Notes: generated by a model not told the origin, from the sequence alone. A stretch of 64,000 bases of DNA from Hungatella sp. (GCA_009712635.1 WASS01000029.1:167276-231275); one strand, 5' to 3'. Positions 1,563-42,868 are shown, numbered from the stretch's first letter. A program made the numbers and translations.

Positions 1563-2993
<1,431 letters not shown>

Positions 2994-3022
2994 AAGTTTA
3001 CAAATAGTAGTTGATTTCATTG

Positions 3023-3116
3023 ACACTCCTGTGATAAGCTTTAGATAGTTCACAGGAGTGTTACTATTAAATTAGGCAAGTCTGCATCTGTTTTTGGTGC
3101 ATACTTGTTTTTTTTA
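3023..3116 (+). promoter_or_regulatory. RAT (ribonucleic antiterminator)/terminator module upstream of the GH88 operon (copy A)
   Basis: An 11-bp perfect hairpin (cactcctgtga..tcacaggagtg) is followed by the RAT-like sequence GGAGTGTTACTATTAAATTAGGCAAGTCTGC and then a weak hairpin with a T8 run. About 95 nt are near-identical to the module at 5532..5626. Confidence 0.6.
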
Positions 3117-3151
3117 TTATAAAAAGGCAGGGTTTTAAGAAAGGGGTATCT

Positions 3152-4285: not shown

Positions 4286-4302
4286 AAGAAAGGAATCATA
4301 TT

Positions 4303-5683: not shown

Positions 5684-6523
5684 ATGAAAATGGTTATTAA
5701 GCAGATATTAAATACAAATGCTGTGATATCAAACGATGAAGATGGACAGGATGTCCTGCTGCTTGGAAGCGGACTTGGATTTAAAAGCCGTATCGGCGAT
5801 GCCATCGATCAGGAGCGGGTTGAAAAACAATTTATTCTGAAAGATAAAAACCATAAAAGTCAGTTCCGGGAAATACTTGATACAGTGCCCCAGGAGTACA
5901 TCATGGTTGCAGAGGATGTCATTGATTTTGCAGTTCAGGTCTTTGATATGACTCTCAATGAAACCATTCATATTTCCCTGGTCGATCATATTTATCATGC
6001 AGTAGAAAATTTTCAGCAGGGGCTAGTCGTACCCAATTCCATTTTACATGATATCATACGGTTTTATCCGGACGAATATAAGGTGGGACAAAAGATGCTG
6101 GATTTGATAGAGTCCAAATTCGGTTACCGGTTATCCAATGATGAGGCAGGATTTGTGGCTATGCATTTTGTAACAGCCCGGCATAATCAGATCAGCGGAA
6201 ATGCGAAAAAGATGATTGTCATGGTGAGCGAACTCAATGATCTGATTATGTCAGAATTGAATTTTCAGGTGAAGGAAGATTCCCTTCCCTATTACCGATA
6301 TATGACCCATTTGAAATTCTTTGCCCAGCGTGTCATGAAAAAGTATTATTATAAAGAGCATGGCGGGGCGCGTATGTTAGAAGAGCTTCTTAGGAACTAC
6401 CCCGATGAATATCGTTGCAGCCAGAAAGTATGCCAATACATTGAAGATAAATATCATTACAAAGCAGGACACGATGAATTAGTATATCTGGCAGTTCATC
6501 TGTCACAATTAAAAAACAGTTAG
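5684..6523 (+). CDS. BglG/LicT-family transcription antiterminator (CAT RNA-binding domain + PRD1 + PRD2)
   Basis: The N-terminus MKMVIKQILNTNAVISNDEDGQDVLLLGSGLGF is a CAT domain, and two PRD repeats with conserved His follow. I trimmed the start to the ATG at 5684, because the track's TTG lies in the terminator U-run. Confidence 0.85.
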   Translation: MKMVIKQILNTNAVISNDEDGQDVLLLGSGLGFKSRIGDAIDQERVEKQFILKDKNHKSQFREILDTVPQEYIMVAEDVIDFAVQVFDMTLNETIHISLVDHIYHAVENFQQGLVVPNSILHDIIRFYPDEYKVGQKMLDLIESKFGYRLSNDEAGFVAMHFVTARHNQISGNAKKMIVMVSELNDLIMSELNFQVKEDSLPYYRYMTHLKFFAQRVMKKYYYKEHGGARMLEELLRNYPDEYRCSQKVCQYIEDKYHYKAGHDELVYLAVHLSQLKNS

Positions 6524-6528
6524 ATTTT

Positions 6529-6599
6529 GGCAGTGTTATGATTCAGTTCAGCAAAGCCTGGTTATTCTCTTAAATAATAGGGGATAACCAGGCTTTTTT
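6529..6599 (+). promoter_or_regulatory. RAT-like element overlapping an intrinsic terminator between bglG and the PTS/gusA genes
   Basis: The RAT-like sequence GGCAGTGTTATGATTCAGTTCAGCAAAGCCTGG overlaps the 5' arm of the hairpin aaagcctggttat..ataaccaggcttttttt. Confidence 0.55.
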
Positions 6600-6614
6600 G
6601 ATAAAAAATTTTAG

Positions 6615-8000
<1,386 letters not shown>

Positions 8001-8050
8001 TAGAGAATGGTGAATTATGACAGCATAAAAAGATAACAGGAGAGTGAAAG

Positions 8051-9853
8051 ATGCTGAATTTTTCAGAATTATACCCATGCAGCAATCAGGCAAGAATGGC
8101 CCAGCTGTTAGATGGTATGTGGAAATTCCGGTTTGATCCGGAGGAAAAAGGACTGCAGGAGGGCTGGCAGCGTAAGCTGCCAGACCCCATCTCCATGCCG
8201 GTTCCCGCTAGTTTTTCCGACTTTTTTACCACAAAAGAAGAACGGGATTTTTGCGGAGATTTCTGGTATGAGACAGAAGTATTTGTACCACGGGAGTGGG
8301 AGAAACAGGAGGTGGAAATCCGTTTCGGAAGCATTACCCACCGCGCAAGCGTTTATTGCAATGGCAGTCTGACAGCAACCCATGAAGGTGGATTTTTGCC
8401 GGTGGTTGCCAGAGTGACGGATCATGTAAAATTTGGTGAAGTAAATACATTTATCGTAAAGGCCAATAACGAATTAAATGAAGAGAGTCTTCCCTGTGGA
8501 ACCACCATGGTGCTTAGTGACGGAAGAAAACTGGCCAAGCCTTATTTTGACTTTTTTAATTACTCCGGAATTCAGAGAAGCGTATGGCTTGTTTCAAAGC
8601 CCACAGAATCCATCGAAGATTTCAGTGTGGATTATGAGTTAAATGGAGAAGATGCCGTTGTTCATTATCAGATTATGACAAATGGAGATCATGAAGTTTC
8701 ATTTGAATTATTAGATGAGAATAAACAGCAGGTAGCGAAAAGCACAGGCACAAAAGGAAGCGTAACTGTTTCCAAAGCCCATTTGTGGAATGTAGGAAAA
8801 GCCTATCTCTATCAGGCAGTCATGCGTATCTGGGATGGAGAAACACTGATTGATGAGTATTCCTCTAAAATCGGGATCAGAACAGTAAAAATAGCAGGAA
8901 AAGAAATTCAGATTAACGGAAAGGCTGTTTATCTGAAAGGATTTGGAAAACACGAAGATTTTGAAGTGATTGGTCGTGGCTTCAACTGGGGTGTTTTAAA
9001 GAGAGATTTTGAATGCATGAAATGGATTGGTGCCAACTGCTTTCGAACCAGTCATTATCCTTATGCAGAAGAGTGGTATCAGTTCGCAGATGAAGAAGGC
9101 TTCCTGATTATTGATGAGGTACCGGCAGTGGGAATGATGAGATCCACCAGAAACTTTGCAGATGCAGGAACCGGGAAATTTACCAGATTTTTTGAAACAC
9201 CTACCGTACCAAATCTGTTAAAGAACCATCTTCAGGCAGTGGAAGAGATGATTGTAAGGGATAAAAACCATCCCAGTGTAATTGCATGGAGTCTGTTTAA
9301 TGAACCGGAAACCACCAGCGAAGAGTCGAAAGATTATTTCACTGCAGTATTTGATGCCGCCAGAGCCTTGGATCCACAGAATCGTCCGATGACAGGGGCA
9401 TTTGAAAAGAACAGTCAGCCGGAACTGTGTAAGTGCTACCAGCTTTGTGATTTTATCTGTTTGAACCGTTATTACGGGTGGTATATCAAAGGAGGACCGG
9501 AGCTTGTTGATGCAAGGGAAGCCTTCTTAATAGAGATGAATAAGTGGAAAGATAAAAATTTGAATATACCGTTTGTATTTACTGAATTTGGTACGGATAC
9601 CATGGCGGCAGAACATAAACTTCCCAGTATTATGTGGAGCCAGGAATACCAGAACGAATATCTGGATATGAATTTTGAAATATTTGACCAGTTTGACTTT
9701 GTGCAGGGAGAATTGGTTTGGAATTTTGCTGATTTCCAGACAACAGAGGGAATCATGCGTGTAAATGGGAACAAAAAGGGGATTTTCAATCGGGTAAGAC
9801 AGCCGAAAAGTGCTGCTTTCGTATTAAAAAAACGTTGGGAATCATTGGACTAA
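8051..9853 (+). CDS. uidA: beta-glucuronidase (GH2)
   Basis: From memory it is collinear with E. coli UidA along its length (LDG.W.F, NNEL, HYPY, ARDKNHPSV.MWS..NEP, NRYYGWY, NFADF.T..G..RV.GNKKGIF.R.R.PK.AAF.L.KRW). It is 600 aa. Confidence 0.9.
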   Translation: MLNFSELYPCSNQARMAQLLDGMWKFRFDPEEKGLQEGWQRKLPDPISMPVPASFSDFFTTKEERDFCGDFWYETEVFVPREWEKQEVEIRFGSITHRASVYCNGSLTATHEGGFLPVVARVTDHVKFGEVNTFIVKANNELNEESLPCGTTMVLSDGRKLAKPYFDFFNYSGIQRSVWLVSKPTESIEDFSVDYELNGEDAVVHYQIMTNGDHEVSFELLDENKQQVAKSTGTKGSVTVSKAHLWNVGKAYLYQAVMRIWDGETLIDEYSSKIGIRTVKIAGKEIQINGKAVYLKGFGKHEDFEVIGRGFNWGVLKRDFECMKWIGANCFRTSHYPYAEEWYQFADEEGFLIIDEVPAVGMMRSTRNFADAGTGKFTRFFETPTVPNLLKNHLQAVEEMIVRDKNHPSVIAWSLFNEPETTSEESKDYFTAVFDAARALDPQNRPMTGAFEKNSQPELCKCYQLCDFICLNRYYGWYIKGGPELVDAREAFLIEMNKWKDKNLNIPFVFTEFGTDTMAAEHKLPSIMWSQEYQNEYLDMNFEIFDQFDFVQGELVWNFADFQTTEGIMRVNGNKKGIFNRVRQPKSAAFVLKKRWESLD

Positions 9854-9873
9854 TTATATAGAGGACTGAGCGA

Positions 9874-10404
9874 ATGGGATTTTTAGATAATTTATTTGGT
9901 AATAAAGAGAAAAAAGAATCAGATACGCCTGTTATTAAGAGCATAACTTGTGAACCAAAAACAATTTACAGCCCTTTAAAGGGAACTGTAATACCTCTTT
10001 CTAACGTAAGCGATCCGGTATTTGCAGAAGAAGTTATGGGACCAGGTGTTGGCATCGAACCAGAAGAAGGAAAGTTATATGCTCCGGTTGACGGTGAGAT
10101 TGTATCCGTATTTCCAACCGGACATGCAATTGGTATGACAACCGGGGATGGAATGGAGGTATTACTTCATATCGGCATCGATACAGTACAATTGGAAGGT
10201 GATGGTTTTCATGCTTTGGTAAAACAGGGAGATCATGTGAAAGCAGGGGAGCTGCTGGTAGAATTCGATTGTGCTAAGATTAAAGAGAAAGGTTATCAGA
10301 CTACCACTATGGTTCTGGTGCCCAATGCCGCTATGTTGGGGGCTATGAGCCAGCCAAAATTAGGTTCGGTTGAACCTCTGGAACAAATCTTTCATTTTCT
10401 GTAA
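9874..10404 (+). CDS. PTS glucose-family EIIA component
   Basis: It carries the EIIA-Glc fold motifs (PL.G....L..V.D.VF, GDGFHALVK.GD.V..G..L.EFD). Confidence 0.85.
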   Translation: MGFLDNLFGNKEKKESDTPVIKSITCEPKTIYSPLKGTVIPLSNVSDPVFAEEVMGPGVGIEPEEGKLYAPVDGEIVSVFPTGHAIGMTTGDGMEVLLHIGIDTVQLEGDGFHALVKQGDHVKAGELLVEFDCAKIKEKGYQTTTMVLVPNAAMLGAMSQPKLGSVEPLEQIFHFL

Positions 10405-10451
10405 TAACGTTCAGGGGAGTATTAACAGAGATAGAGAACACATTATAACAT

Positions 10452-10496
10452 AAAAATGCGGGCAGCTTTCATGGAAGGAAGCTGCCCGCATTTTTT
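10452..10496. terminator. intrinsic terminator after the PTS/gusA operon
   Basis: Stem aaaatgcgggcagc..gctgcccgcatttttt, followed by T6. Confidence 0.7.
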
Positions 10497-10525
10497 GTAC
10501 TTAATTAATTTATATGGGAATTACA

Positions 10526-10563
10526 TAAAAACATATTGACAAATATCAATATGTTTTTATAAT
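10526..10563 (+). promoter_or_regulatory. ars promoter (TTGACA-17-TATAAT) embedded in a perfect palindrome (probable ArsR operator)
   Basis: TTGACA lies at 10535-10540 and TATAAT at 10558-10563, exactly 17 bp apart. The 13-nt inverted repeat aaaaacatattga / tcaatatgttttt spans the -35 element and the spacer. Confidence 0.6.
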
Positions 10564-10620
10564 TAAGACATAGATAAATATCTATATCATAAATTCTGAG
10601 CATATAAAAGGGAGAAGACG

Positions 10621-10938
10621 ATGGATCAGCATGTAGATTATGCGTCAGTATTTAAAGCATTAGGAGATACAACGAGGCTAAAAATTATCGAGATGTTATC
10701 CTGTGGTGAACTTTGTGCATGTAATATTCTGGAATCTTTTGAGATTACACAGCCCACATTATCTTATCACATGAAGATACTTACAGAATGCGGGCTTGTA
10801 ATAAGCCGTAAAGAAGGATCCTGGATGCATTACAGCAATAATACCCAGTTAATTGAGCTGATTAAAAATTACTGGACCAATATTACTACAGAAAAGGAAG
10901 ACTGTATCTGTAAATATAAGAAAGCAGACGGGCGATGA
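10621..10938 (+). CDS. arsR: ArsR-family arsenite-responsive repressor
   Basis: It has a winged HTH plus the ELCACNIL As(III)-binding Cys pair. The RBS is AAAGGGAG. Confidence 0.85.
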   Translation: MDQHVDYASVFKALGDTTRLKIIEMLSCGELCACNILESFEITQPTLSYHMKILTECGLVISRKEGSWMHYSNNTQLIELIKNYWTNITTEKEDCICKYKKADGR

Positions 10939-11044
10939 GACAAATGACAAGTTGGACTGATATTTTTTGTAACACACCAGTTCAAGCTGCATAGTATATG
11001 CATATATGCTCATATAGATATTAACTAAGAAAGGAGTGATATTT

Positions 11045-11407
11045 TTGACAGATATTTTTAAGGCACTGTCTGAGGAAAGCAGGCTGCGAATCCTGACCCT
11101 GCTGATGGAACGGGAAATGTGTGTCTGTGAGATAGAAATTTGTCTGAATATGACACAGTCAAACGCTTCCAGACATCTTACGGTGCTGAAAAACTGTGGG
11201 ATTTTATACGGTTATAAGAAGGCGCAATGGGCATATTTTGGAATCAGCGACAGTTTTAAAAAGGAACATAAAGAACTGTGGGAGTATCTGCAAAAAAAGA
11301 TAGTTGAATTACCCACCTATGAGTCCGACCACGAACAATGCGAGAAGTACAGAACCGTTGATGTCTGTGCCAGTTCAAAAATAACTCAGGAAGGGGAGGA
11401 AGAATGA
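11045..11407 (+). CDS. arsR: ArsR-family repressor, second paralog
   Basis: It has an HTH plus the EMCVCEIE Cys pair. The start is ambiguous: GTG at 11036 has 0-nt spacing to AAGGAG, while TTG at 11045 has about 9-nt spacing. Confidence 0.75.
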   Translation: MTDIFKALSEESRLRILTLLMEREMCVCEIEICLNMTQSNASRHLTVLKNCGILYGYKKAQWAYFGISDSFKKEHKELWEYLQKKIVELPTYESDHEQCEKYRTVDVCASSKITQEGEEE

Positions 11408-12453
11408 AGAAAGAAAAATCAGCAGAGATTGGTTTTTTTCAAAGATATTTAACCATATGGGTAGCCCTATGTATGGTTGCAGGAGTATTAATCGGAAAAT
11501 TTTTTCCTGTGGTACCTGGTTTTTTCAGTCAGTTTGAATATGCAAATGTATCGATTCCTACAGCCATATTAATCTGGATTATGATTTATCCAATGATGAT
11601 GAAGGTGGATTTTGAAAGTGTGAAGTATGTGGGGAGAAATCCCAAAGGATTATATGTAACGTGGATTACAAATTGGTTAATAAAACCCTTCACAATGTTT
11701 GCAATAGCTTCTTTCTTTTTCTACGTTGTATTTAAGGGATTGATTCCTGCAGATCTGGGAAAAGAATATCTGGCTGGTGCCGTTTTATTAGGAGCTGCGC
11801 CTTGTACAGCCATGGTTTTTGTATGGAGCCAGCTGACCAAAGGCAATCCGGCCTACACCGTGGTGCAGGTAGCAACCAATGACTTGATTATACTGATTGC
11901 CTTCGTACCCATTGTCAAATTTTTGCTTGGAGTGAGTAAGGTATCTGTCCCCTGGGATACTCTTATTTTATCAGTCGTCTTATTTGTTGTGGTACCTTTA
12001 TTGGCAGGTGTCTTAACAAGAATGTATGTAAGTAAGAAAAAAGGAAGAGATTACTTTGAAAATCAGTTTATTCCCAGGTTCGATCAGGCAACAATAGCCG
12101 GTTTGCTGCTGATGCTTGTACTTTTATTTTCTTTCCAGGGGGATGTTATTTTAAATAATCCTCTGCACATATTACTCATAGCAGTGCCGCTAACTATACA
12201 GACATTTTTAATTTTCTTTCTGGCGTACCTTGCAGCGAAAGTACTTAAACTTCCTCACAATATAGCAGCCCCTGCGGGCATGATCGGCGCTTCCAATTTC
12301 TTCGAGCTTGCAGTTGCAGTAGCCATAGCTCTGTTCGGCATGGATTCTCCGGCAGCACTTGCCACTGTAGTCGGTGTTTTGACCGAGGTACCGATTATGC
12401 TTATACTTGTTAAGATAGCAAATAAGACAACTCATTGGTTTGAAACAAAATAA
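11404..12453 (+). CDS. acr3: arsenite efflux transporter, ACR3 family
   Basis: The N-terminus FFQRYLTIWVALCMVAGVLIG and about 10 TM segments are typical of Acr3. The start overlaps the arsR2 stop. Confidence 0.9.
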   Translation: MKKEKSAEIGFFQRYLTIWVALCMVAGVLIGKFFPVVPGFFSQFEYANVSIPTAILIWIMIYPMMMKVDFESVKYVGRNPKGLYVTWITNWLIKPFTMFAIASFFFYVVFKGLIPADLGKEYLAGAVLLGAAPCTAMVFVWSQLTKGNPAYTVVQVATNDLIILIAFVPIVKFLLGVSKVSVPWDTLILSVVLFVVVPLLAGVLTRMYVSKKKGRDYFENQFIPRFDQATIAGLLLMLVLLFSFQGDVILNNPLHILLIAVPLTIQTFLIFFLAYLAAKVLKLPHNIAAPAGMIGASNFFELAVAVAIALFGMDSPAALATVVGVLTEVPIMLILVKIANKTTHWFETK

Positions 12454-12477
12454 TATTAGAAAAGGAAGTATCAGAAT

Positions 12478-12867
12478 ATGAAAAAAATGCAGATTTTTGA
12501 ACCAGCTATGTGCTGCTCAACAGGACTTTGCGGAGTTTCCGTTGATCCCGAATTATTAAGAGTTTCCACGGTACTGAATACATTAAAGAATAACGGAGTA
12601 CAGGTAGGCCGTTTTAATCTAACAAATGCACCTCAGGAATTTGTAGCAAATAAAACAGTAAATGAGTTTGTCAGAGAAAAAGGTGCAGATGGCTTACCAG
12701 TTATTATTGTGGATGGAAATATAGTGATAACCGGCAGATATCCATCAAATGAAGAGTTTATCAAGTTGCTTGAAGTTCCGGAACATTTTATTGGCAAAAT
12801 TGCAGGTGACGCAGAGGCTGAGAAATCAAAAGGCTGTGGCTGTTCTGGAGGGGGTTGCTGTAGTTAG
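12478..12867 (+). CDS. arsD: arsenical resistance metallochaperone/repressor ArsD
   Basis: MKKMQIFEPAMCCSTGLCG (Cys12-Cys13-Cys18) plus C-terminal Cys clusters. Confidence 0.9.
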   Translation: MKKMQIFEPAMCCSTGLCGVSVDPELLRVSTVLNTLKNNGVQVGRFNLTNAPQEFVANKTVNEFVREKGADGLPVIIVDGNIVITGRYPSNEEFIKLLEVPEHFIGKIAGDAEAEKSKGCGCSGGGCCS

Positions 12868-14603
12868 TGGAAACGTTCAATATAGAAAAAGAAATATTTA
12901 CAAAATATCTTTTCTTTACCGGAAAAGGCGGAGTGGGAAAAACTTCAACAGCTTGTGCCACAGCCGTATCCCTTGCTGATTCAGGAAAAAGGGTGATGCT
13001 GATCAGCACGGACCCGGCCTCCAATCTCCAGGATGTATTTGAAACAGAACTGAACAATAAAGGCGTCTCAATTGCTGGCGTGCCTGGTCTTGTGGTAGCG
13101 AACTTAGATCCCATAGAGGCGGCGGCAGAGTATCGGGAAAGTGTAATTGCCCCTTATCGGGGACAGCTGCCGGATGCTGTTCTGAAAAATATGGAGGAAC
13201 AGATGTCTGGTTCCTGCACAGTTGAAATTGCAGCTTTTAATGAATTTTCAAAGTTTATTACAGATGAGCAAATTCAGGCTGATTGTGATTATATTATCTT
13301 TGATACTGCACCTACGGGGCATACATTAAGAATGCTCCAGCTCCCATCAGCCTGGAGCAGCTTTATCAGCGAAAATACCCACGGAGCTTCCTGTTTAGGG
13401 CAGCTGTCGGGTCTGGAAAGCAAGAGGGAAATCTATAAAAAGGCTGTGAAAACACTATCTGATGGAACTCTTACAACCTTAATTCTGGTTTCAAGACCTG
13501 AGGTGACTCCGTTAAAAGAAGCTGCGAGAGCCTCTTATGAGCTCAAGGATATTGGGGTAAAGAACCAGATAATAATCATGAACGGATTATTGACAGGATA
13601 CGATGATACGATTTCAGAAAGTTTATATAAAAAGCAACAGGCAGCGCTTTCTAATATGCCAGAAGAACTTATGAATCTGAAATGCAGTTTCATACCTCTC
13701 AGATCTTATCCCATAACCGGATTGAAAAACGTAAGAGCTTTACTGGAAAATGACAGTGATACAGTCAGTGAGGATAAAGTTAATGCGGATATCATACCAG
13801 GGCTGAAAGATGTAATAGACGATTTATACCAATCTGGCAAAAAAGTCATATTTACCATGGGAAAAGGGGGTGTGGGGAAAACAACAATAGCCGCATCTGT
13901 TGCACTTGGTCTGGCAGCCAGAGGGAAAAAAGTACATCTGACGACTACCGATCCGGCTGCTCATCTTAAGTTTGTTATGAGCGAAACGGATAAAATTACA
14001 ATGAGCCATATCGATGAAAAAGAGGAGTTAAAGAAATATCAGCAGGAAGTACTTAATAAAGCGAGGGAAACGATGTCAGAAGAGGATCTTGCATATATAG
14101 AAGAAGATTTAAGATCCCCCTGTACCCAGGAAATAGCTGTATTCAGGGCATTTGCGGATATCGTTGAGAAGGCAGAAGATCAGATTGTAGTGATTGATAC
14201 CGCACCTACTGGACATACGTTATTACTTCTGGATTCAACCCAAAGCTATAATCAGGAGATAAAACGCTCCCAGGGTGATGTTCCTGATTCAGCCAAAAAA
14301 CTGCTTCCAAGATTAAGAAATAAAGGTGAGACAGAAGTTATTATAGTCAGTCTCGCTGAAACTACCCCGGTTTATGAAGCGCTTCGTCTGGAGGCGGATT
14401 TAAAGCGGGCGGGCATTGCCGCAAAGTGGTGGGTTATTAATTCATCCCTTTACCGTACCGGTACCACGAATCATTTGCTGTCAGCAAAAGCCAGTAATGA
14501 AATTGAATGGATTAATAAGGTGGATGCCCACTCCAATGGAAATTTTGCAGTGATCAGCTGGAGACCGGATGAAATAAAGGATGAGAGTTTATATTTGCTG
14601 TAG
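12867..14603 (+). CDS. arsA: arsenite-transporting ATPase ArsA (duplicated P-loop halves)
   Basis: Two halves, each with GKGGVGKT and DTAPTGHTL motifs. The GTG start overlaps the arsD stop by 1 nt. Confidence 0.9.
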   Translation: METFNIEKEIFTKYLFFTGKGGVGKTSTACATAVSLADSGKRVMLISTDPASNLQDVFETELNNKGVSIAGVPGLVVANLDPIEAAAEYRESVIAPYRGQLPDAVLKNMEEQMSGSCTVEIAAFNEFSKFITDEQIQADCDYIIFDTAPTGHTLRMLQLPSAWSSFISENTHGASCLGQLSGLESKREIYKKAVKTLSDGTLTTLILVSRPEVTPLKEAARASYELKDIGVKNQIIIMNGLLTGYDDTISESLYKKQQAALSNMPEELMNLKCSFIPLRSYPITGLKNVRALLENDSDTVSEDKVNADIIPGLKDVIDDLYQSGKKVIFTMGKGGVGKTTIAASVALGLAARGKKVHLTTTDPAAHLKFVMSETDKITMSHIDEKEELKKYQQEVLNKARETMSEEDLAYIEEDLRSPCTQEIAVFRAFADIVEKAEDQIVVIDTAPTGHTLLLLDSTQSYNQEIKRSQGDVPDSAKKLLPRLRNKGETEVIIVSLAETTPVYEALRLEADLKRAGIAAKWWVINSSLYRTGTTNHLLSAKASNEIEWINKVDAHSNGNFAVISWRPDEIKDESLYLL

Positions 14604-14623
14604 ATAAAAGAGGTGAAAGTGAT

Positions 14624-15040
14624 ATGAATCAAGATCATAAACCGAATGTTGCCTTCGTTTGTGTACACAACTCCTGCCGAAGCCAGATAGCGGAAGCGTT
14701 GGGAAAGCATCTTGCCAGTGATGTGTTTGAAAGCTATTCGGCAGGAACCGAATGTAAGGATCAGATCAATCAGGATGCAGTCCGGTTAATGAAAAAGATA
14801 TATGGAATTGATATGGAGGCATCACAGAAAAGTAAGTTAATAGAAGAGATACCAGATCCTGATGTGGTAATTACCATGGGATGCAATGTTAAGTGTCCGG
14901 TTCTTCCCTGTAAAATGAGAGAGGACTGGGGATTAGATGATCCTTCAGGGAAAGACGATGGTGCTTTTGAGAAAACCATTGGGATAATCGAGAATAAAAT
15001 CTTAGATTTAAGAAACAGGCTGAAAAATCAGTTGCTATAA
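14624..15040 (+). CDS. arsC: arsenate reductase, LMW-PTP/thioredoxin-coupled type
   Basis: The motif VAFVCVHNSCRSQIAEAL is the CX5R P-loop of low-molecular-weight PTPase-type ArsC. Confidence 0.85.
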   Translation: MNQDHKPNVAFVCVHNSCRSQIAEALGKHLASDVFESYSAGTECKDQINQDAVRLMKKIYGIDMEASQKSKLIEEIPDPDVVITMGCNVKCPVLPCKMREDWGLDDPSGKDDGAFEKTIGIIENKILDLRNRLKNQLL

Positions 15041-15122: not shown

Positions 15123-16019
15123 TCAGATGGATTTGCGAATAACAGGTACATAAATTTCCATTACCGCATCTTCGGTCTCGTGGCAGCGCTCATCATAAAA
15201 TTCAAAATCCATCTTTGTTTCATCGAATTCATAATTGCTGAAAGGAAACCATTCGTTGAAAATGTATTTCCATGTCTGTTTTATTGCGGTTGAAAACGGA
15301 TCATGATCTTCTGTCTGGGCTGCAAGAATTTCTTTAACAGGTGGTGTTGTAAAAACAGCATATTCTGCTTCCGGTACAGTAATGGTCATCATATCCGGAG
15401 TTACTTTTTCAAAGTCATCAACAATAACACCCAATAAATAAACAGCGCTGCCATTTTCTGAATTAGGCACACAGATTCCAACTTCCCCATGATTGGGAGG
15501 ATTTAATTGTTGATACATTTTACTTTCCAGATTTTCTCCATCATAGGTATCCCAATATGCAGCGATATCCTTTGTATAATTTTCTGTAATACTTGTGTTA
15601 ATTCCATAGCCAGCAACCAGAAAAGCTGGTTTTCTTATGATAACAGGATTCATAATAATACCCCCTAAATTTGTTATAATTTCTTTCACATCACATCCAC
15701 TCATTCTGGAAATATAGGTAGTAGGGCTATAACCGAATTCTTTACGAAACGCTTTTGAATATCCGCTTGCAGTTTCGAATCCGTAATCAAGTGCAACTTC
15801 TATAATCTTTTTACTAATAAGAAGGTCTGCACGGGAAAGCAATAATCGCTTTTTACGGACGAATTCCATAAGCGGAATCCCTTGACTGACAGCAAATATT
15901 CTGCAAAAATGAAATACGGAATACCCCGCCTGCTGTGATAGTTGTTCCGCTGTCAATTCTTCTTTTATATTCCTTTCAATAAAGTGAATGCATTGTTCGA
16001 TTGTCTTACTATATTCCAA
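15123..16019 (-). CDS. AraC-family regulator with GyrI-like effector-binding domain
   Basis: An N-terminal AraC HTH pair is followed by a C-terminal GyrI-like domain. The start is TTG after AAGGAG. Confidence 0.8.
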   Translation of the reverse strand: MEYSKTIEQCIHFIERNIKEELTAEQLSQQAGYSVFHFCRIFAVSQGIPLMEFVRKKRLLLSRADLLISKKIIEVALDYGFETASGYSKAFRKEFGYSPTTYISRMSGCDVKEIITNLGGIIMNPVIIRKPAFLVAGYGINTSITENYTKDIAAYWDTYDGENLESKMYQQLNPPNHGEVGICVPNSENGSAVYLLGVIVDDFEKVTPDMMTITVPEAEYAVFTTPPVKEILAAQTEDHDPFSTAIKQTWKYIFNEWFPFSNYEFDETKMDFEFYDERCHETEDAVMEIYVPVIRKSI

Positions 16020-16105
16020 ATAATCTCCTTGCCTTTCCTCCGTACGGTAACTGTATTATATCAACTATTTTAGGGGTTTGCTGTTCCTGTTTTGCTAAAA
16101 CCAGT

Positions 16106-17011
16106 TCAGGTGAGATTTCTGAGCCAGATCTCCATATTTGTTGTATCAGGTGAATGGCTTGCATAGCGTTCCGCACAGAAAGCATCGGTCTGCAGTTTGT
16201 GTTTAGGAAGCCATGTATTATAAATATAATGCTGGGCTTTATAAAGCGCATCCATAACAAGGGCTTCAAAGCTCTCGGCTTCAAAAGAGCATATAATATA
16301 TTCTCCGGCAGGTAATTCCCAGCTCTTAAAAGCGCTTGGAATTTCTGCGTGCTCATAAGGCATACCAGCAAAATAACTAAAACATCCTTCTTTTAAACTG
16401 GAGTAAGCGGCTCCAATTTCCTCTGTGTCCTCAGAAACACAGGTCAATGCAGTTTTTTGTTTATGAAAGTCATCCCAAAGCGAGGCAAGCGGATCTATTC
16501 CGGATTCTGTTCCCAGACCGTCTATATGATGGATGGGTACATCCTTTATTAACCCCATATAATGGACGGGTTCTTTAAGTTCTTTTCTGTGTATTTCCAG
16601 AACAATGCCATCGGTAATCAGCGGCACTTCCTCATCGACCAGTGTGTAGTGAAGCAGAAGCTGGGGTTTTGTCATACGGTTGAGAGTCTGTGGTTTTTTG
16701 CGGTAATCATCTGGAGTCAGACCAAAGGTGTTTTTAAATGTGCGGGAAAAGTGTTCGTGAGAGGTAAATCCAAGCTCTAATGCAATATCCAGGATTCTTA
16801 TGTCTGATTGGAGTAAGCAGTCTGCTGCCCTTGCCATACGGCGGAGTTTGATATACTCGGTGACCGGTTTTTTGACAAGGCGGCTAAATAAGCGTTGATA
16901 ATAGAACGGAGACAGACAAGCTGTTTTTGCCAGATCCTCAATATTAATATCTTCATTTAAATGATCTTCAATATAATTGACTGTTTGTTGTATTTGTTCC
17001 CATGCGTGCAT
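16106..17011 (-). CDS. AraC-family regulator with GyrI-like effector-binding domain (paralog)
   Basis: Its AraC HTH is DLAKTACLSPFYYQRLF...LGFTSHEHFSRTFKNTFGLTP. An AAGGAGGTG RBS precedes the start. Confidence 0.8.
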   Translation of the reverse strand: MHAWEQIQQTVNYIEDHLNEDINIEDLAKTACLSPFYYQRLFSRLVKKPVTEYIKLRRMARAADCLLQSDIRILDIALELGFTSHEHFSRTFKNTFGLTPDDYRKKPQTLNRMTKPQLLLHYTLVDEEVPLITDGIVLEIHRKELKEPVHYMGLIKDVPIHHIDGLGTESGIDPLASLWDDFHKQKTALTCVSEDTEEIGAAYSSLKEGCFSYFAGMPYEHAEIPSAFKSWELPAGEYIICSFEAESFEALVMDALYKAQHYIYNTWLPKHKLQTDAFCAERYASHSPDTTNMEIWLRNLT

Positions 17012-17283
17012 ATTTAAGCACCTCCTTTTTTCCTACAGTATACCATGTCTGTTAGGGATACCGCTTGACTGTGAATGCTTTTTAATTGAGGATACCATGA
17101 AAGGAATCTGGAAGCAATGCTTGTGGATACACTGCTTTTATATTATTGACGAGAAGGTTAGCCTATGCTAATATAACGTGTAGTTAGTATAAACTAACAT
17201 TGCAAAATGAAATTGTATATATGAAGCACATATATAAGACTGATTGAAGTAACATCACAAAATTTTAGCAGGAGGTTTTATTT

Positions 17284-17832
17284 ATGACTGTCAGTGAGAT
17301 AATTCGGGAACGGCGAACAATACGTGAATTCAATGATAATAAAGTATCTTTGGATGCAATTACAGAACTGCTGGAAACCGCTGTCTGGGCACCGTACCAC
17401 GGGATTCCGGAGCCATGGAGGTTCCTTGTATTTTCTGATCATGGAATAGACCGTCTGAGCGATATGATTTATCAGGCTCTTTCTCAGACTGAGCGAAAAG
17501 AGTATGGGGATAAATTAAAGCAGCATCTCAGTACGGTTCCTGTTGCTGTTGTAGTAGTGGGAAAACTGGACCGAAATCAAAAAATCATGGATGAGGTTTC
17601 CGCATCCGTGAGTGCACTCATTCAAAATTTTCAATTAGCAGCCTGGGAGAAGGAGATTGGGGTTGTATGGAAAACACAATCTTATATGCATACACCTCAA
17701 ATCAGCAAAAGTCTGGAACTGAAACCGGATGAAAAATTAGCAGGAATTCTTCTATGTGGATATTTTGATAAAAAGCCATTGAAACATTCTCGCAATCCGG
17801 CAGTATCCAGAACCATATTTATAAAAGAATGA
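17284..17832 (+). CDS. nitroreductase-family FMN oxidoreductase
   Basis: It has the RRTIREF nitroreductase N-terminal motif and is 182 aa. Confidence 0.8.
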   Translation: MTVSEIIRERRTIREFNDNKVSLDAITELLETAVWAPYHGIPEPWRFLVFSDHGIDRLSDMIYQALSQTERKEYGDKLKQHLSTVPVAVVVVGKLDRNQKIMDEVSASVSALIQNFQLAAWEKEIGVVWKTQSYMHTPQISKSLELKPDEKLAGILLCGYFDKKPLKHSRNPAVSRTIFIKE

Positions 17833-17922
17833 TAAAACCTTTTAATCGTGTAATCATCAGGTGAAAAGTGCCATTAATATGGGTGAACAATGGTAGAATA
17901 AGAGCACAAAGGAGCACATATC

Positions 17923-17950
17923 ACGACTTGTCTATTTGCTGCATAAAATA
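17923..17950 (+). promoter_or_regulatory. candidate sigma-K-type (late mother-cell) promoter, AC-N17-CATAAAATA
   Basis: AC sits at 17923-24 and CATAAAATA at 17942-50 after a 17-nt spacer, matching the sigK consensus AC-N17-CATAnnnTA. This rests on a consensus match only. Confidence 0.3.
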
Positions 17951-17982
17951 TAGTGTACTCTATTTTGAAAGGAGTGAGTTTT

Positions 17983-18375
17983 ATGTGTTGCTGTAATTGT
18001 GGTTGCAGACGTAATGACAGATCTGACCGTGATGAAAATCGCGAATGGTGTGAAAGAAAATTTAGAGAGGCTTACCTGAATGGTTACGACAGAGGTCGCA
18101 GACCATGCTGGAGAGAACCATCGGAATCCGATGATGATTTTAACAATAACTTAAATGATAACTTTAGCGACAACTTCAGTCGTAACTTAAATGGCAATCT
18201 AAACGATAACTTAAGCCATAACTTAAATGGCAATCTAAACGATAACTTCAGTCGTAACTTAACTGACATACTAAGCGATAACTTTAGTAATAATTTTAAT
18301 GATAATTTTAGTGATAACTTTAGCAATAACATTATCGTTGTAATTGTTGACAGTTTTAACAATAACACAATTTAG
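17983..18375 (+). CDS. small Cys-rich protein with about 16 tandem Asn-x-x-x tetrapeptide repeats (possible spore-coat-like protein)
   Basis: AAAGGAG lies 8 nt before the ATG at 17983 (MCCCNCGCRRN...). The N-terminal 60 aa are unique, Cys- and Arg-rich. After that come repeats of NLND/NFSD/NLNG/NFSR. Confidence 0.5.
   Translation: MCCCNCGCRRNDRSDRDENREWCERKFREAYLNGYDRGRRPCWREPSESDDDFNNNLNDNFSDNFSRNLNGNLNDNLSHNLNGNLNDNFSRNLTDILSDNFSNNFNDNFSDNFSNNIIVVIVDSFNNNTI
18132..18330 (+). repeat. about 16 copies of a degenerate 12-nt tandem repeat (AACTTnARnGAy), coding
   Basis: The period-12 repeat is visible directly in the sequence. On the plus strand it encodes the N-x-x-x repeats; the minus-strand L-K repeat ORF is its mirror image. 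Confidence 0.85.
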
Positions 18376-18385
18376 TAAAGAATTT

Positions 18386-18417
18386 AAGGCAGGCAACCGG
18401 CAACGGTCCTGCCTTTT
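18386..18417. terminator. bidirectional intrinsic terminator
   Basis: Stem aaggcagg..cctgcctttt, lying between the convergent Cys-rich gene and the GntR gene. Confidence 0.6.
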
Positions 18418-18428
18418 AAATGAGTCGA

Positions 18429-19130
18429 TTAAAAAATCTGATGCCCGCCTTCCAGTGCTTCATTCAGCTGTTTGTCTGTGCACCTCCTCGCGGCGTTAGC
18501 ATCCCTTTCTTTAATACATTTATATAAACAAAGTACGCTGTCATAGAGCGCTTCTTTCCCGTATTTCAGACAGAAACGTTTCCAAAGCTGAGTTACAACA
18601 GGTTTAAAGGATATGTAAATCAAAGGAATAATACTGTTCCCGCTGATTACAGAAAGCTTGTGATGAAAAGAAAAGGTGGCAAGAACCGTATCATCAATAG
18701 TTTTCGCAGCTGCAACCTCTTCCAGCAAACCTTCCAGACCCAGAATATCCTCATTTGATGAATTTTTTACAATTGAATCAGTTGCCAGGTGTTCCAACGC
18801 ACGCCGCACTTCAATAATTGAGTAAATTTCACCCTGTCCAAGGGTATCTCCGTGATATTCCATAATGGCATTTAAAGTATTAATGTTGCCGTTTTTCCCA
18901 TAATCTGCAACAAAAACACCCTGCCTTGGATGGACTTCTAAAAAACCCTGTTTTTCAAGTTCGGAAAAGCCGCTGTTAACAACGGCACGGCTTACCTGCA
19001 TCTGCCTTGCAATTTCCCTTTCCGAAGGCAGCCGGCTTCCAACCGGCATTTGTCCCGATAAAATTAAATCACGGATCTGATGAATAAACATTTCTTTTAA
19101 GCTTAACGCACTTAGTTTCTGAAATTCCAT
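18429..19130 (-). CDS. GntR-family regulator with FCD (FadR-C-like) domain
   Basis: It has a GntR wHTH (LPSEREIARQMQVSRAVV) and an all-alpha FCD C-terminus. I trimmed the start to MEFQK, which has an AAGGGG RBS. Confidence 0.8.
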   Translation of the reverse strand: MEFQKLSALSLKEMFIHQIRDLILSGQMPVGSRLPSEREIARQMQVSRAVVNSGFSELEKQGFLEVHPRQGVFVADYGKNGNINTLNAIMEYHGDTLGQGEIYSIIEVRRALEHLATDSIVKNSSNEDILGLEGLLEEVAAAKTIDDTVLATFSFHHKLSVISGNSIIPLIYISFKPVVTQLWKRFCLKYGKEALYDSVLCLYKCIKERDANAARRCTDKQLNEALEGGHQIF

Positions 19131-19376
19131 ATTCTCACCCCTTATTCTGGCTCTGGTCATACCAGAGATTGATACTATTTTATCATACATTCTTACTAAA
19201 ATTCAACAAATTTATATGTGATTATCACAGTTATTTTTTGCATTATTGCCAGTACACTGAGAATATTTTATAATAATATTGTTATGACTGAACCAGTATA
19301 CTTATTAAGAAACCACCATGCACCTTTTGGTTAAAAAGATGGATGAGGAAAGAATAAAAAGAAGGGAGCGCGGCAC

Positions 19377-20045
19377 GTGAAAGATTTTAAAGTTCTGGAA
19401 ATAAAAACAAGTGTCTTTGCAGACAACAACTTACAGGCTGGAAAGCTTCGGGAAGAATTAAAAGAGAAAAAGGTATTTCTTCTTAATCTGATGTCCAGTC
19501 CCGGCGCAGGTAAGACAACCACTCTGGTCCGTACCATTAATGGATTAAAGGACGACTTAAAGATTGGAGTTATGGAAGCAGATATTGATTCTGACGTAGA
19601 TGCCCGGACTATATCACAGACCGGTGCAAAAGCCATTCAGCTTCATACAGGAGGTATGTGTCATCTGGATGCGCAAATGACCCGCCAGGGACTGGAGGGC
19701 CTTGATCCGGACGGTCTTGACCTTGTAATATTAGAAAATGTGGGCAACCTGGTATGCCCGGCTGAATTTGATACCGGCGCAGTAAAGAATGCCATGATCC
19801 TTTCGGTACCGGAAGGGGATGATAAGCCATTAAAATATCCTCTCATGTTTTCCATCTGCGATGTGGTGCTGATCAATAAGATGGATGTATTGCCGTATTT
19901 TAATTTTGATCTGGAAAAATGCAAAGAGAATATACGCCTGCGTAATCCAAATGCGATTATTATTCCCATCAGCGCATTGAAAAAGGAAGGAATAAAGGAG
20001 TGGACCGACTGGCTTCATAATGCGGTAAAATCCTGGTGTGAATAG
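19377..20045 (+). CDS. hypB: hydrogenase nickel-incorporation GTPase HypB
   Basis: G3E GTPase motifs SPGAGKTT, EADIDSD and ENVGNLVCPAEFD are present, with a GTG start. Confidence 0.85.
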   Translation: MKDFKVLEIKTSVFADNNLQAGKLREELKEKKVFLLNLMSSPGAGKTTTLVRTINGLKDDLKIGVMEADIDSDVDARTISQTGAKAIQLHTGGMCHLDAQMTRQGLEGLDPDGLDLVILENVGNLVCPAEFDTGAVKNAMILSVPEGDDKPLKYPLMFSICDVVLINKMDVLPYFNFDLEKCKENIRLRNPNAIIIPISALKKEGIKEWTDWLHNAVKSWCE

Positions 20046-20102
20046 CAAATAAGATAGATAAAAAAACTTCGAAAGCGCCATATAAGCGCGGGAAAGGGAA
20101 TT

Positions 20103-22793
20103 ATGAGTGAATTAAGACCTAAAATAGTAAAGCTTGCTAAAATGGTGGGCGGTATTGCAGGAGTCATGAACAAAATTGATGAAAATTCTCCCGAATACTA
20201 TTCACTGGACTGTGTTGTAACCGATGACATGGCTGATATTGCCATGATTATTGGACTGCGCAAACCCCGCACCTTCGAGTACATAGCAAAACGTTCCGGA
20301 AAAAGTAAGAAAGAAACAAAGCTCCTTTTAGAACAGCTGGCTTACACCGGTGTAGCCAAAGTATGGAAAGATAAGGAAGATCAGAAAGACCGCTACTTCG
20401 TAAATATCTTTGCTCCCGGTATGCTGGAGATGATGGTAAATAACCGAGAGCAGCTGAACGAGCACCCGGAAATCGGAAAAGCTTTTGAAGAATATACCAG
20501 GCTGCGTCTTGCACCCATGGCCGCCAAATTCCCTCAGGGAATGGCAATGATGCGTGTTATTCCTGTAGAAGAAGCCATAAAGGACATTAAAGGTACAAAA
20601 CCATGGGAGCATCTTTCCTACTATCTGGATAAGTATGATACATTTTCCGTATCTGACTGTTCCTGCCGCCAGTCACGCCGTGTGATTGAGGAGGGCTGCG
20701 GCCACCTGGAAAAAGATATCTGTATCCAGATGGGAGAAGGTGCTGAATATTATATCAAGACAGGCAGAGGCCGCCAGATTACCCGGGAAGAAGCAAAGGA
20801 AATTATCAAATTCGCAGAAAATAACGGCCTGATGCATGAAATGCCCCATACCGACGGACTGGGTGAATCAGCGGCAATCTGTAACTGCTGTGGCTGCGCA
20901 TGCTTTTCCCTGCGTCTTGCAACTCTTTTTAATACCCCGGATTCCATACGTTCCAATTTTACTGCCAGGGTTAAGAAAGAAAATTGTGTGGCCTGCGGAC
21001 AGTGTGTGGAGAACTGCCCCGTGAATGCGTTAACACTTGGCCAAAAGCTCTGCTCCAAAACACCTGTCACCATAAAGGCAGAACCGACTGCCCGCGACCA
21101 TATCTGGAAAGAAAGCAACTGGAATGTGGATTACCGGGAGAACCGGAAAGATGTTTCAGAAGAAGGTACCTCTCCATGTAAGACTGCCTGTCCGGCCCAT
21201 ATTTCCGTACAGGGATACATAAAGCTTGCTGCTTCCGGACGTTACCGGGAAGCATTGGAACTGATAAAAAAAGAAAACCCGTTCCCTGCTGTCTGCGGAC
21301 GGATCTGCCCCCACGGCTGCGAAAGTGAATGTACCCGCGGAGACATTGATGAACCGGTTTCCATTGATGAAATTAAAAAATTTATTGCGGATAAAGAACT
21401 GGATGAATCGGTTCGCTATATTCCGCCCATGCGTTATAATCTGGGCAATAAAATTGCTGTGGTTGGTTCTGGTCCCTCCGGACTTTCCTGTGCTTATTAC
21501 CTGGCAATTGACGGATACAAGGTAACTGTATTTGAAAAGGAAGAAAAACTGGGCGGTATGTTAACCCTTGGTATTCCTTCTTTCCGTCTGGAGAAAGAGG
21601 TTCTTAATGCTGAAATTGATGTTTTGCGGGAAATGGGTGTTTCCTTTAAAACGGGAGTTGAAGTTGGAAAAGATATTACCCTGAATCAGCTTCGTGAAGA
21701 AGGATATGAAGCGTTTTATCTGGCAATCGGAGCACAGGGCGGCAGACGTCTTGGTATTGAAGGGGAAGAAGCCCAGGGTGTCATTTCTGGAGTTGATTTC
21801 CTACGTAATGTGAATCTTGGAAGAAAGTCAGAATTATCCGGCAACGTAGTTGTGATCGGTGGAGGAAATGTAGCCATTGATGTGGCTCGTACTGCAAAAA
21901 GACAGGGGGCAGAGGAGATTCATCTTTACTGTCTGGAAAGTCCTGGTGAAATGCCGGCATTACCAGAGGAAATTGAAGAGGCGAAAGAAGACAGCGTATC
22001 CTTCCACAATGGCTGGGGGCCTAAGCGCATTCTGACGGAAGACGGTAAGGTAACCGGAGTGGAATTGAAACGGTGCACCAGTGTCTTTGACGCAGACCAC
22101 CGTTTTGCGCCTAAGTATGATGAGAACGATACGATCATTGTTAAAGCTGATTCTGTGCTGCTTTCCGTTGGTCAGTCAATAGAATGGGGCGGACTTCTTT
22201 CCGGCAGCAGGGTGGAACTGGGACGAGGCGGTAACGCATACGCTGACAGTCTCACATTACAGACAGCAGAGCCTGACGTTTTTGTAGGTGGAGACTGCTT
22301 TACCGGTCCTAAATTCGCAATCCATGCCATTGCATCTGGAAAAGAAGGTGCCATCTCCATTCACCGTTATGTACAGCCTGGTCAGTCTCTTGTATTTGGC
22401 CGTGACCGCCGTGAATATCACGCATTTGACAAGAACAACATTGCCATCGGGATACAGGATTTTGATATGACACCCCGCCAGAGACCGGGCCATTCTCCTG
22501 AGAAAAAAGGTACATTTCATGATGAACGAATGACCTTTACAGAGGAACAGTTAAAGAAAGAGACGGAACGCTGCCTTGGATGCGGTACGGTAGAAATCGA
22601 CAGCTACAAGTGTATTGGATGCGGCTTATGTACCACCAAATGTAAATTTGATGCAATCAGTCTGGAACGGACTTATGATACAGTTCCCAATACCTATGAA
22701 AAACTTCCTGTCAAGATTGCAACAAATGCAATTGTACGTACTGGAAAGATTGCTGCCACAACTCTCAAAGAAAGCGTCATTAATAGAAGCTGA
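20103..22793 (+). CDS. multidomain Fe-S flavoprotein: unusual N-terminal Cys-cluster domain + 4Fe-4S ferredoxin + GltD/NfnB/SudA-like NAD(P)H-FAD oxidoreductase + C-terminal 2x[4Fe-4S]
   Basis: The protein has five recognisable regions in order. aa 180-270 carry CSCRQSRR..CGH..DIC..AICNCCGCAC. CVACGQCVENCP follows. Then comes the GltD-like core, CKTACPAH...NPFPAVCGRICPHGCESECTRG. There are two Rossmann folds, VAVVGSGPSGL and VVVIGGGNVAIDVA. The C-terminus is CLGCGTVEIDSYKCIGCGLCTTKC. It is 896 aa. Confidence 0.7.
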   Translation: MSELRPKIVKLAKMVGGIAGVMNKIDENSPEYYSLDCVVTDDMADIAMIIGLRKPRTFEYIAKRSGKSKKETKLLLEQLAYTGVAKVWKDKEDQKDRYFVNIFAPGMLEMMVNNREQLNEHPEIGKAFEEYTRLRLAPMAAKFPQGMAMMRVIPVEEAIKDIKGTKPWEHLSYYLDKYDTFSVSDCSCRQSRRVIEEGCGHLEKDICIQMGEGAEYYIKTGRGRQITREEAKEIIKFAENNGLMHEMPHTDGLGESAAICNCCGCACFSLRLATLFNTPDSIRSNFTARVKKENCVACGQCVENCPVNALTLGQKLCSKTPVTIKAEPTARDHIWKESNWNVDYRENRKDVSEEGTSPCKTACPAHISVQGYIKLAASGRYREALELIKKENPFPAVCGRICPHGCESECTRGDIDEPVSIDEIKKFIADKELDESVRYIPPMRYNLGNKIAVVGSGPSGLSCAYYLAIDGYKVTVFEKEEKLGGMLTLGIPSFRLEKEVLNAEIDVLREMGVSFKTGVEVGKDITLNQLREEGYEAFYLAIGAQGGRRLGIEGEEAQGVISGVDFLRNVNLGRKSELSGNVVVIGGGNVAIDVARTAKRQGAEEIHLYCLESPGEMPALPEEIEEAKEDSVSFHNGWGPKRILTEDGKVTGVELKRCTSVFDADHRFAPKYDENDTIIVKADSVLLSVGQSIEWGGLLSGSRVELGRGGNAYADSLTLQTAEPDVFVGGDCFTGPKFAIHAIASGKEGAISIHRYVQPGQSLVFGRDRREYHAFDKNNIAIGIQDFDMTPRQRPGHSPEKKGTFHDERMTFTEEQLKKETERCLGCGTVEIDSYKCIGCGLCTTKCKFDAISLERTYDTVPNTYEKLPVKIATNAIVRTGKIAATTLKESVINRS

Positions 22794-39014: not shown

Positions 39015-39104
39015 ATGGAAATCGTACTGGTAATATCAGGATGTATTGGTCTGGCTTTGCTGATTTACTTATTCTATATTTTATTTCGAGGTGAGAATTT
39101 ATGA
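39015..39104 (+). CDS. kdpF: potassium-transporting ATPase subunit KdpF (29 aa)
   Basis: It encodes [29 protein letters not shown], a single hydrophobic TM peptide. AGGAG lies 8 nt upstream. The stop overlaps the kdpA ATG (ATGA). It is absent from the ORF track. Confidence 0.6.
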
Positions 39105-40783: not shown

Positions 40784-40801
40784 CAGAGTGAGGTGATCAA
40801 A

Positions 40802-42859: not shown

Positions 42860-42868
42860 GGTGAAACG

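Follow-up and report, generated by a model that had tools for sequence, protein, structure and literature searches.

What is the protein encoded by a short gene that opens on a cluster of cysteines and continues into an array of asparagine-rich tetrapeptides? We met this question in a 64,000-nucleotide (nt) stretch of DNA deposited as Hungatella sp. (GCA_009712635.1 WASS01000029.1:167276-231275), which we call the window, with positions counted from its first letter. An earlier note on this DNA had described a 130-amino-acid (aa) open reading frame (ORF) with a good ribosome-binding site (RBS) and the start MCCCNCGC, and we read this gene directly from the sequence at 17983-18375 on the plus strand. 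We infer, tentatively and at somewhat less than an even chance, that this mini-protein belongs to the spore coat or exosporium, is specific to its genus, and is expressed in the mother cell.

The coding sequence, defined by the ORF list and by homologues, begins at an ATG at 17983 and ends with a TAG stop that is included in its coordinates (18373-18375). The RBS, AGGAGTG (17970-17976, plus strand), has an AGGAG core (17970-17974) 8 nt 5' of the ATG and is kept as GAAAGGAGTG or GAAGGGAGT across all loci in the upstream alignment. The product is laid out as MCCCNCGCRRNDRSDRDENREWCERKFREAYLNGYDRGRRPCWREPSESDDD, followed by 16 tetrapeptides and then by IIVVIVDSFNNNTI. The family alignment delimits a non-repetitive N-terminal domain (aa 1-52; 17983-18138, plus strand) that is rich in Cys and charged residues and contains (i) the Cys cluster MCCCNCGC (codons 2-8, 17986-18006), (ii) a DRDENREWCERxFREAY motif, and (iii) a SESDDD linker. 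Residues M1, C2, C3, R9, N19, C23, R25, S49, and D51 are invariant in this alignment, and C4, R16, R20, E24, R28, E29, and A30 are nearly so; across the aligned sequences, the module can be written as MCC[C/F]x[C]xC[C] followed by the charged motif.

Downstream of this domain lies an array of 16 tetrapeptide units of the form [F/L]-[N/S]-[D/N]-N (aa 53-116; 18139-18330, plus strand), defined by Tandem Repeats Finder and unit statistics. Units 1 to 8 are FNNN, LNDN, FSDN, FSRN, LNGN, LNDN, LSHN, and LNGN, and units 9 to 16 are LNDN, FSRN, LTDI, LSDN, FSNN, FNDN, FSDN, and FSNN; Lys is missing from the repeats and Arg is scarce. The earlier estimate of about 16 imperfect 4-aa repeats on a 12-nt DNA repeat agrees with these 16 in-register units. 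Tandem Repeats Finder reported the 12-nt period at 18146-18320 (14.6 copies, 64% matches), and the longer periods of 36 nt (78% matches, score 173) and 72 nt (score 229) fit better. The array is followed by a hydrophobic, Asn-flanked C-terminal tail recognized by its conservation in the family (aa 117-130, IIVVIVDSFNNNTI; 18331-18372, plus strand), which with N116 included reads NIIVVIVDSFNNNTI. Its family consensus is NNI[IV][IV][IV][IV][DN]SFNNNT[ILV], with the variant FFINFNVDDNIEV in one sub-lineage. The tail is too short to span a membrane and is likely a beta-strand or self-association element. Across the family, the pI is 4.1-4.8, Asn makes up 22-32% of residues, Lys is present 0-1 times, and there are 6-10 Cys, most of them in the first nine residues. 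We found no signal peptide or membrane span in the sequences of the family proteins.

To which organisms does this family belong? A word-indexed search of 5.8 billion proteins returned nine relatives of 73-136 aa, and a scan of one genome per species returned 13 loci, all from Lacrimispora or from mislabelled or renamed relatives (among them 'Clostridium boliviensis' and two metagenome-assembled genomes (MAGs) labelled Paenibacillaceae); the gene also occurs on further metagenome contigs. An exhaustive search with a HMMER profile against 1.84 billion cluster representatives gave four full-length clusters (P0004, P0008, P0009, and P0056) and no full-length relative outside Lacrimispora, the remaining matches covering the repeats only. 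The gene is confined to one genus, Lacrimispora. Pfam, NCBIfam, and PHROG scans and a PDB sequence search gave no meaningful match to the mini-protein, and an Rfam scan of 17000-19400 gave nothing overlapping the gene, in keeping with the earlier remark that no such annotated family was known. The protein has a name in just one source, where it is called 'hypothetical protein'; because most NCBI records carry neither an accession nor a name for it, the gene is probably often missed by genome annotation. The two MAGs labelled Paenibacillaceae (L001, SVDS01000157.1; L006, CAURBV010000001.1) have loci with 88-99% protein identity to the window's Lacrimispora genes, and these labels are probably wrong.

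All members share (i) an MCC start, (ii) Cys23 inside a DRDENREWCER-like motif, and (iii) an NNI...NNNT[ILV]-type end or a variant of it; one copy, L012, has an in-frame deletion at the second of these. The ORF is intact at 12 of the 13 genome loci, with all 12 lengths divisible by 3. The number of repeats varies from 5 to 22 units and changes by whole 4-aa units only, deletions in the N-terminal domain are also in frame, and a clean in-frame 36-nt indel, placed at a perfect duplication, separates the window from its closest relatives (P0001, on more than 20 contigs). Variable sites are distributed 31/30/46 over the three codon positions, with the third highest. Start, RBS, stop, and both termini are conserved and the indels are in frame, and these patterns therefore show a real coding gene under coding constraint, not a non-coding minisatellite. 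The earlier note had suggested looking for repeat-number variation among strains and for conservation of the N-terminal Cys domain in related genomes; we found both, the C-terminus being conserved as well, and we found intact frames where a minisatellite would have left broken ones with the repeats persisting.

At the one locus where the ORF is broken, L010, a G-run is longer by a single G. We read this frameshift most simply as a sequencing error because the neighbouring HypB, iron-sulfur (FeS) flavoprotein, and AraC genes are also frame-broken. The copy comes from L. xylanisolvens ASCUSBR21 (CP070896.1, deposited as a 'complete genome'), in which at least four genes (AraC, mini-protein, HypB, and FeS flavoprotein) are broken within about 7 kb (locus positions 6000-12700). 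The frame break examined there is a homopolymer-length error, and the assembly looks unpolished and would produce false pseudogenes.

When would the gene be expressed? Upstream of it, pattern matching and conservation define a promoter block, TCACGACTTGTCT-N7-GCATAAAATATAGTGTA (17921-17957, plus strand), containing sigK-type elements: a -35 'AC' at 17923-17924 and a -10 CATAAAATA at 17942-17950, with 17 nt between them. The sequence ACGACTTGTCTATTTGCTGCATAAAATA (17923-17950), 33 nt 5' of the ATG, matches AC-N17-CATAnnnTA perfectly, and this occurrence, AC-N17-CATAAAATA, is the sole match to that pattern in the window. The 15 loci read, made up of the 13 genome loci together with the window and L026, all retain TCAC-N17-GCATAAAATATAGT. 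When aligned, the block reads TCAC[G/T/A]ACTTGTCT-N7-GCATAA[A/T][A/G/T]TATAGT[G/A]T and is followed by the RBS; its bounds are sharp, and the sequence 5' of it diverges among species groups. At the non-syntenic locus L011, TCAC-N17-GCATAAATTATAGT is retained with little else conserved, and the P0009 locus L026, the most divergent member (about 50% identity), retains the entire block exactly. The extended motif CATAnnnTATAGT has no second occurrence in the window or in L001-L013. The upstream gene is divergent in the nearest relatives, and the mini-protein gene therefore needs its own promoter.

The sigE and sigK promoters of C. difficile, like those of B. subtilis, have a CATA-type -10 in common and are told apart by the -35, which is ATA for sigE and AC for sigK; sigK promoters have 'AC' and 'CATAnnnTA' 16-17 nt apart, and coat and bclA genes depend on sigK in a clostridial relative, C. 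difficile (PMC3789822). The block has AC and no ATA, and sigK therefore fits better than sigE. Judged against this consensus, which comes from C. difficile and B. subtilis and not from Lacrimispora, we think the chances moderately favor a mother-cell sporulation promoter. The minimal sigK motif alone is not beyond chance, and the support comes from its position and conservation. What had been proposed as a sigK-like promoter thus stands as a pattern, being perfect and present in all 15 loci, but not as a statistically distinct one, with about 1.8 matches expected per window.

Outer spore layers consist largely of lineage-specific proteins, and genus restriction together with absence from curated family libraries is typical of them. 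Lachnospiraceae are abundant gut and environmental spore-formers, and we know of almost no described outer spore-layer proteins from this family. Lacrimispora itself is a group of endospore-forming Lachnospiraceae; endospores are documented for the genus (PMC11316579). Given a Cys cap, a variable spacer, an aggregation-prone strand, a sporulation-type promoter, and an endospore-forming genus, we consider a protein of the outer spore layers the best fit. On this view, a sigK-type promoter of the gene's own (sigE being less likely) would switch it on in the mother cell at a late stage of sporulation, and the product would be deposited in the coat or exosporium. There, disulfides between N-terminal cysteines would cross-link the protein, or these cysteines would bind metal; self-association would be driven by the C-terminal strand; and the Asn-rich array would provide a spacer or a stretch exposed at the surface, its length varying as slippage or recombination of the 12/36-nt DNA repeat makes it grow and shrink. 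If so, the gene would provide a handle on the spore-surface architecture of Lacrimispora and a natural, length-tunable Asn-rich tetrapeptide module, and its repeat polymorphism could act as a strain marker. If the spore-layer assignment fails, it would be an ordinary orphan small protein. As a long shot, the array may be a previously undescribed self-assembling repeat, for example an Asn-ladder beta-solenoid or an amyloid-like period-4 fibre akin in its logic to pentapeptide repeats, that builds a genus-specific spore-surface filament or lattice with a repeat-tuned dimension, anchored by thiolates through disulfides or bound metal.

Several observations weigh against a spore-surface role. The minimal sigK pattern is expected by chance 1.79 times per 64 kb and occurred at least once in 85 of 100 shuffles. 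Most loci are congeneric and syntenic, so that only three lineages (L011/L014, L013, and L026) provide semi-independent comparisons of the promoter. The conserved block is longer than the sigK elements, with ACTTGTCT and TATAGT also kept, and TTGTCT (17928-17933) and TATAGT (17949-17954), 15 nt apart, allow the block to be read as a poor sigA promoter or as a regulator site. No sporulation genes lie in the first 43 kb of the window. Neither the PDB sequence search nor the 1.84-billion-representative profile search gave homology to a known coat or exosporium protein. Pairwise codon differences are 774 synonymous versus 1363 non-synonymous, which suggests that purifying selection on the gene is only modest. 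Finally, AlphaFold2 run on the family alignment gave no confident fold (mean predicted local distance difference test score (pLDDT) 39.8); the monomer is probably disordered.

The rival that best survives draws on the same promoter block: the mini-protein could be a vegetative self-assembling or amyloid-like surface or matrix protein, or have another role outside sporulation, with the block serving as a sigA-type promoter or regulator site. Both TTGTCT and TATAGT are conserved and resemble sigA hexamers, L011 retains TTGATT-15 nt-TATAGT, and the Asn-rich repeats and the IIVVIV strand would be aggregation-prone by composition. However, the 15-nt spacer is outside the 16-18 nt of functional sigA promoters, and a rule-based scan found no sigA-type promoter with that spacing upstream on the plus strand. 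A sigA promoter would also leave the invariant GCATA as an unexplained spacer, and a protein that has no secretion signal would need another route to the surface. We regard this alternative as unlikely.

Do the neighbouring genes point to a different function? Upstream of the mini-protein gene, the window holds in order an ars operon (ACR3-type transporter, ArsA, and ArsC), two AraC/GyrI regulators, and a nitroreductase-family gene (Pfam PF00881; 17284-17832, plus strand), which lies directly upstream. Downstream are a convergent GntR/FCD regulator, a HypB-like GTPase (19377-20045, Pfam cobW), and an 896-aa FeS flavoprotein, and the mini-protein gene is convergent to this unit at 12 of the 13 genome loci. 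The nitroreductase gene is present at 6 of these loci and absent from 7 (6 of the 12 syntenic ones), as well as from all eight contigs of the nearest relative. The AraC/GyrI regulators and the nitroreductase are present, partly present, or absent depending on the Lacrimispora species or strain; in some species the direct upstream neighbour is arsC or a phosphotransferase system EIIA gene. In the L011/L014 lineage, the mini-protein gene lies between an ABM monooxygenase gene and an HD-domain gene. Within about 8-10 kb, we found no YcaO, radical-SAM, lanthipeptide or other maturase, no transporter, and no protease. As far as gene order can tell, the neighbours give no functional linkage for the mini-protein.

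Other features of this region can be described in their own right. In the ars operon (11404-15040), the transporter is of the ACR3/SBF type, the ArsA ATPase has two domains, and ArsC is of the LMWP type. A comparison with L001-L013 and L018-L025 shows the segment at 15123-17832, between arsC and the mini-protein gene, to be a variable island with fixed flanks, namely the ars operon and the GntR-HypB-flavoprotein unit. The cluster of GntR/FCD regulator, HypB-like GTPase, and 896-aa GltD-like FeS flavoprotein (18429-22793; 8337-12978 in L017) is conserved; its GTPase has no N-terminal CxxCGC extension, and in L017 a HypA gene follows. For nickel chaperone genes of a Lachnospiraceae genome, such surroundings are unusual. 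Farther along, at 39101-43429, the window has a kdpABC operon.

These neighbours bear on a second alternative, which we hold distinctly improbable: that the mini-protein is cytosolic and binds a metal or metalloid, its Cys cluster taking up a thiophilic ion, be it Ni(II), As(III), or some other, in a role tied to the ars or HypB/HypA genes. E. coli HypB has an N-terminal extension with a CxxCGC motif that forms a picomolar Ni(II) site (PMC12284835). The window protein, reading M-C-C3-C-N-C6-G7-C8, contains this pattern and, like HypB, has a disordered N-terminal segment that opens with a Cys cluster. The nearby HypB-like GTPase, encoded two genes downstream, is without such an extension, HypA is found further along the same cluster in L017, and arsC lies directly upstream on the same strand in L008, L009, and L012. 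However, the mini-protein's CxxCGC begins at Cys3 and not Cys2, one residue off the N-terminal amine that HypB uses as a ligand, and the family does not conserve it: other members have A or V in place of the Gly or a different spacing, with variants such as MCCCRCACC, MCCCNRSCY, MCCCNPCY, MCCFNNGCC, and MCYSRCACC. Nor is the gene consistently linked to hypB, to which it is convergent with the GntR gene in between, and in the L011/L014 lineage both ars and hyp genes are missing from its neighbourhood. Since all of the synteny is within one genus, it lends little functional weight to a metal link, and metal binding would leave both the Asn repeats and the sporulation-type promoter block unexplained.

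Could the ORF be spurious, or the real gene lie on the other strand? The 3' end of the gene is marked by an intrinsic-terminator-like hairpin with a short T run, predicted by RNA folding (18386-18417, plus strand). The hairpin, AAGGCAGG...CCTGCCTT (18386-18415; -18.8 kcal/mol, z = -3.7 versus shuffles), is followed by four T only (TTTTAAAT) and sits between the mini-protein gene and the convergent GntR gene, whose ORF ends at 18429 on the minus strand, and it may terminate in both directions. It is missing from the output of a rule-based terminator scan, probably for having a loop longer than the scan allows. Of the 'clean terminator' described earlier, the stable hairpin holds up but the cleanness does not, given the short U-tract and the missing scan entry. 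On the minus strand, the ORF list contains an antisense 'LKLS' ORF of 94 aa with a GTG start (18084-18368), which had been called artefactual. Its frame is interrupted in 6 of the 13 copies examined (the window, L001, L002, L005, L011, and L013), where the longest stop-free stretches are 59-95 codons, well under the length of the sense ORF. The frame test does not decide the matter by itself, since almost the entire gene lacks antisense stops in L003, L004, L006-L009, and L012. The antisense frame has no conserved start, however, whereas the sense start, RBS, stop, and ORF are kept everywhere. We agree with the earlier judgement and rejected the LKLS ORF as a gene, as it is not conserved and is a by-product of repeat composition.

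We therefore give very little credence to the idea that the locus is a non-coding minisatellite with a spurious ORF, or that the antisense ORF is the real gene. In its favor, the AT-rich repeat DNA is also open in the antisense direction (up to 152 of 155 codons in L003), the gene is unannotated in most NCBI records, and one genome copy is frameshifted. Against it, every lineage keeps the sense ATG, the RBS, the stop, and the non-repetitive sequence at both ends, all indels are in frame, the antisense frame is repeatedly interrupted, and the frameshifted copy reflects a homopolymer error in an assembly with many such errors.

Weakest of all, and scarcely credible, is the idea of a precursor of a ribosomally synthesized and post-translationally modified peptide with the nitroreductase-family protein as its dehydrogenase: the nitroreductase gene is indeed directly upstream on the same strand and the peptide is Cys-rich, but, sharing the earlier note's doubt about a modified peptide, we rejected the idea because this synteny is not conserved (the gene is lacking at 7 of 13 genome loci and on the eight nearest-relative contigs) and no maturation enzyme is found among the flanking ars, AraC/GyrI, GntR, HypB, and FeS flavoprotein genes, and moreover the Cys cluster occupies the very start of the protein, a place that one would assign to a leader peptide, and 4-aa repeats are too short for repeated core peptides. 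The probability left after the spore-surface proposal and these four rivals goes to a real protein with some other role.

How, then, does a putative spore-surface mini-protein compare with known systems? CdeC and CdeM of Clostridioides difficile are Cys-rich, self-assembling exosporium morphogenetic proteins (PMC7677010). Like them, the mini-protein is lineage-restricted and Cys-rich, comes from a spore-forming clostridial lineage, and has no relatives beyond a narrow taxon. CdeC and CdeM are made in the mother cell and organize the outermost spore layer, in which the mini-protein may also reside. The mini-protein is smaller, bunches its Cys in the first eight residues, and carries an Asn-rich tetrapeptide array that they lack. 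Word-indexed and exhaustive profile searches gave no sequence similarity to CdeC/CdeM or to CotY/ExsY-type Cys-rich spore proteins.

CotG and CotB are transcribed late in the mother cell under sigK. Both are modular coat proteins of Bacillus subtilis with tandem repeats (PMC9765600, PMC7821199). The mini-protein resembles them in having non-repetitive ends around a central module of tandem repeats, probably disordered and different from species to species. Their repeats, in contrast, are rich in Lys, Arg, and Ser and are phosphorylated by the kinase CotH, whereas those of the mini-protein are rich in Asn, Asp, Phe, and Leu, with 0-1 Lys. We found no CotH-like gene among the neighbours examined and no homology to CotG or CotB, and the mini-protein does not classify as CotG-type.

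A third comparison is with BclA-type exosporium collagen-like glycoproteins, in which repeat number sets filament length. The mini-protein shares their repeat-number polymorphism, but it has neither collagen GXX triplets nor the BclA C-terminal domain. In Lacrimispora algidixylanolytica SPL73 (L011), a gene for a 751-aa BclA-like protein (2727-4982, minus strand) lies 3 kb from the mini-protein copy; its product contains collagen triplets (GPT/GAT) in long arrays (Pfam Collagen, E 2e-83), a weak BclA_C match below the cut-off, and a very Cys-rich N-terminus (CNCGGGKKCSSDRCCNNGCINCEPCRCKCCRC). We rejected homology between this N-terminus and that of the mini-protein (BLASTP E 0.27, not significant), and the adjacency is not kept in L014. 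The promoter block of the mini-protein was not found upstream of the L011 BclA-like gene.

As for the repeat itself, the best repeat-only matches of the family profile are to the xNLx repeat arrays of DUF6745 proteins (E 1e-16 to 1e-12). The array shares with these, and with pentapeptide A(D/N)LXX repeats, a core of Asn followed by Leu or Phe and a short fixed period. DUF6745 proteins, however, are 300-500 aa long, with a DUF6745 domain and repeats rich in Arg, Ala, Trp, and Gly; the domain (PF20530) is found in P0011, P0013, and P0017 and not in the mini-protein. There was no Pfam match to the pentapeptide repeat family even at E <= 1, and the period is 4, not 5. P0011, P0013, P0017, and P0038 combine a C-terminal DUF6745 with long xNLx tetrapeptide arrays, such as DNLRDNLWDNLG. 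For the P0017 array, single-sequence AlphaFold2 gave one continuous helix of about 155 residues (central pLDDT 72-89); we did not carry this model over to the mini-protein, the composition being too different.

We therefore regard the likeness to CdeC/CdeM and CotG/CotB as analogy and not homology. Among the sequences compared, the mini-protein family appears as an unannotated one without sequence relatives and with an unusual period-4 Asn repeat. Most plausibly, it is another lineage-specific spore-surface protein, and nothing about it contradicts expectations for spore coat biology; a new self-assembling fold in the repeat, if true, would raise its significance.

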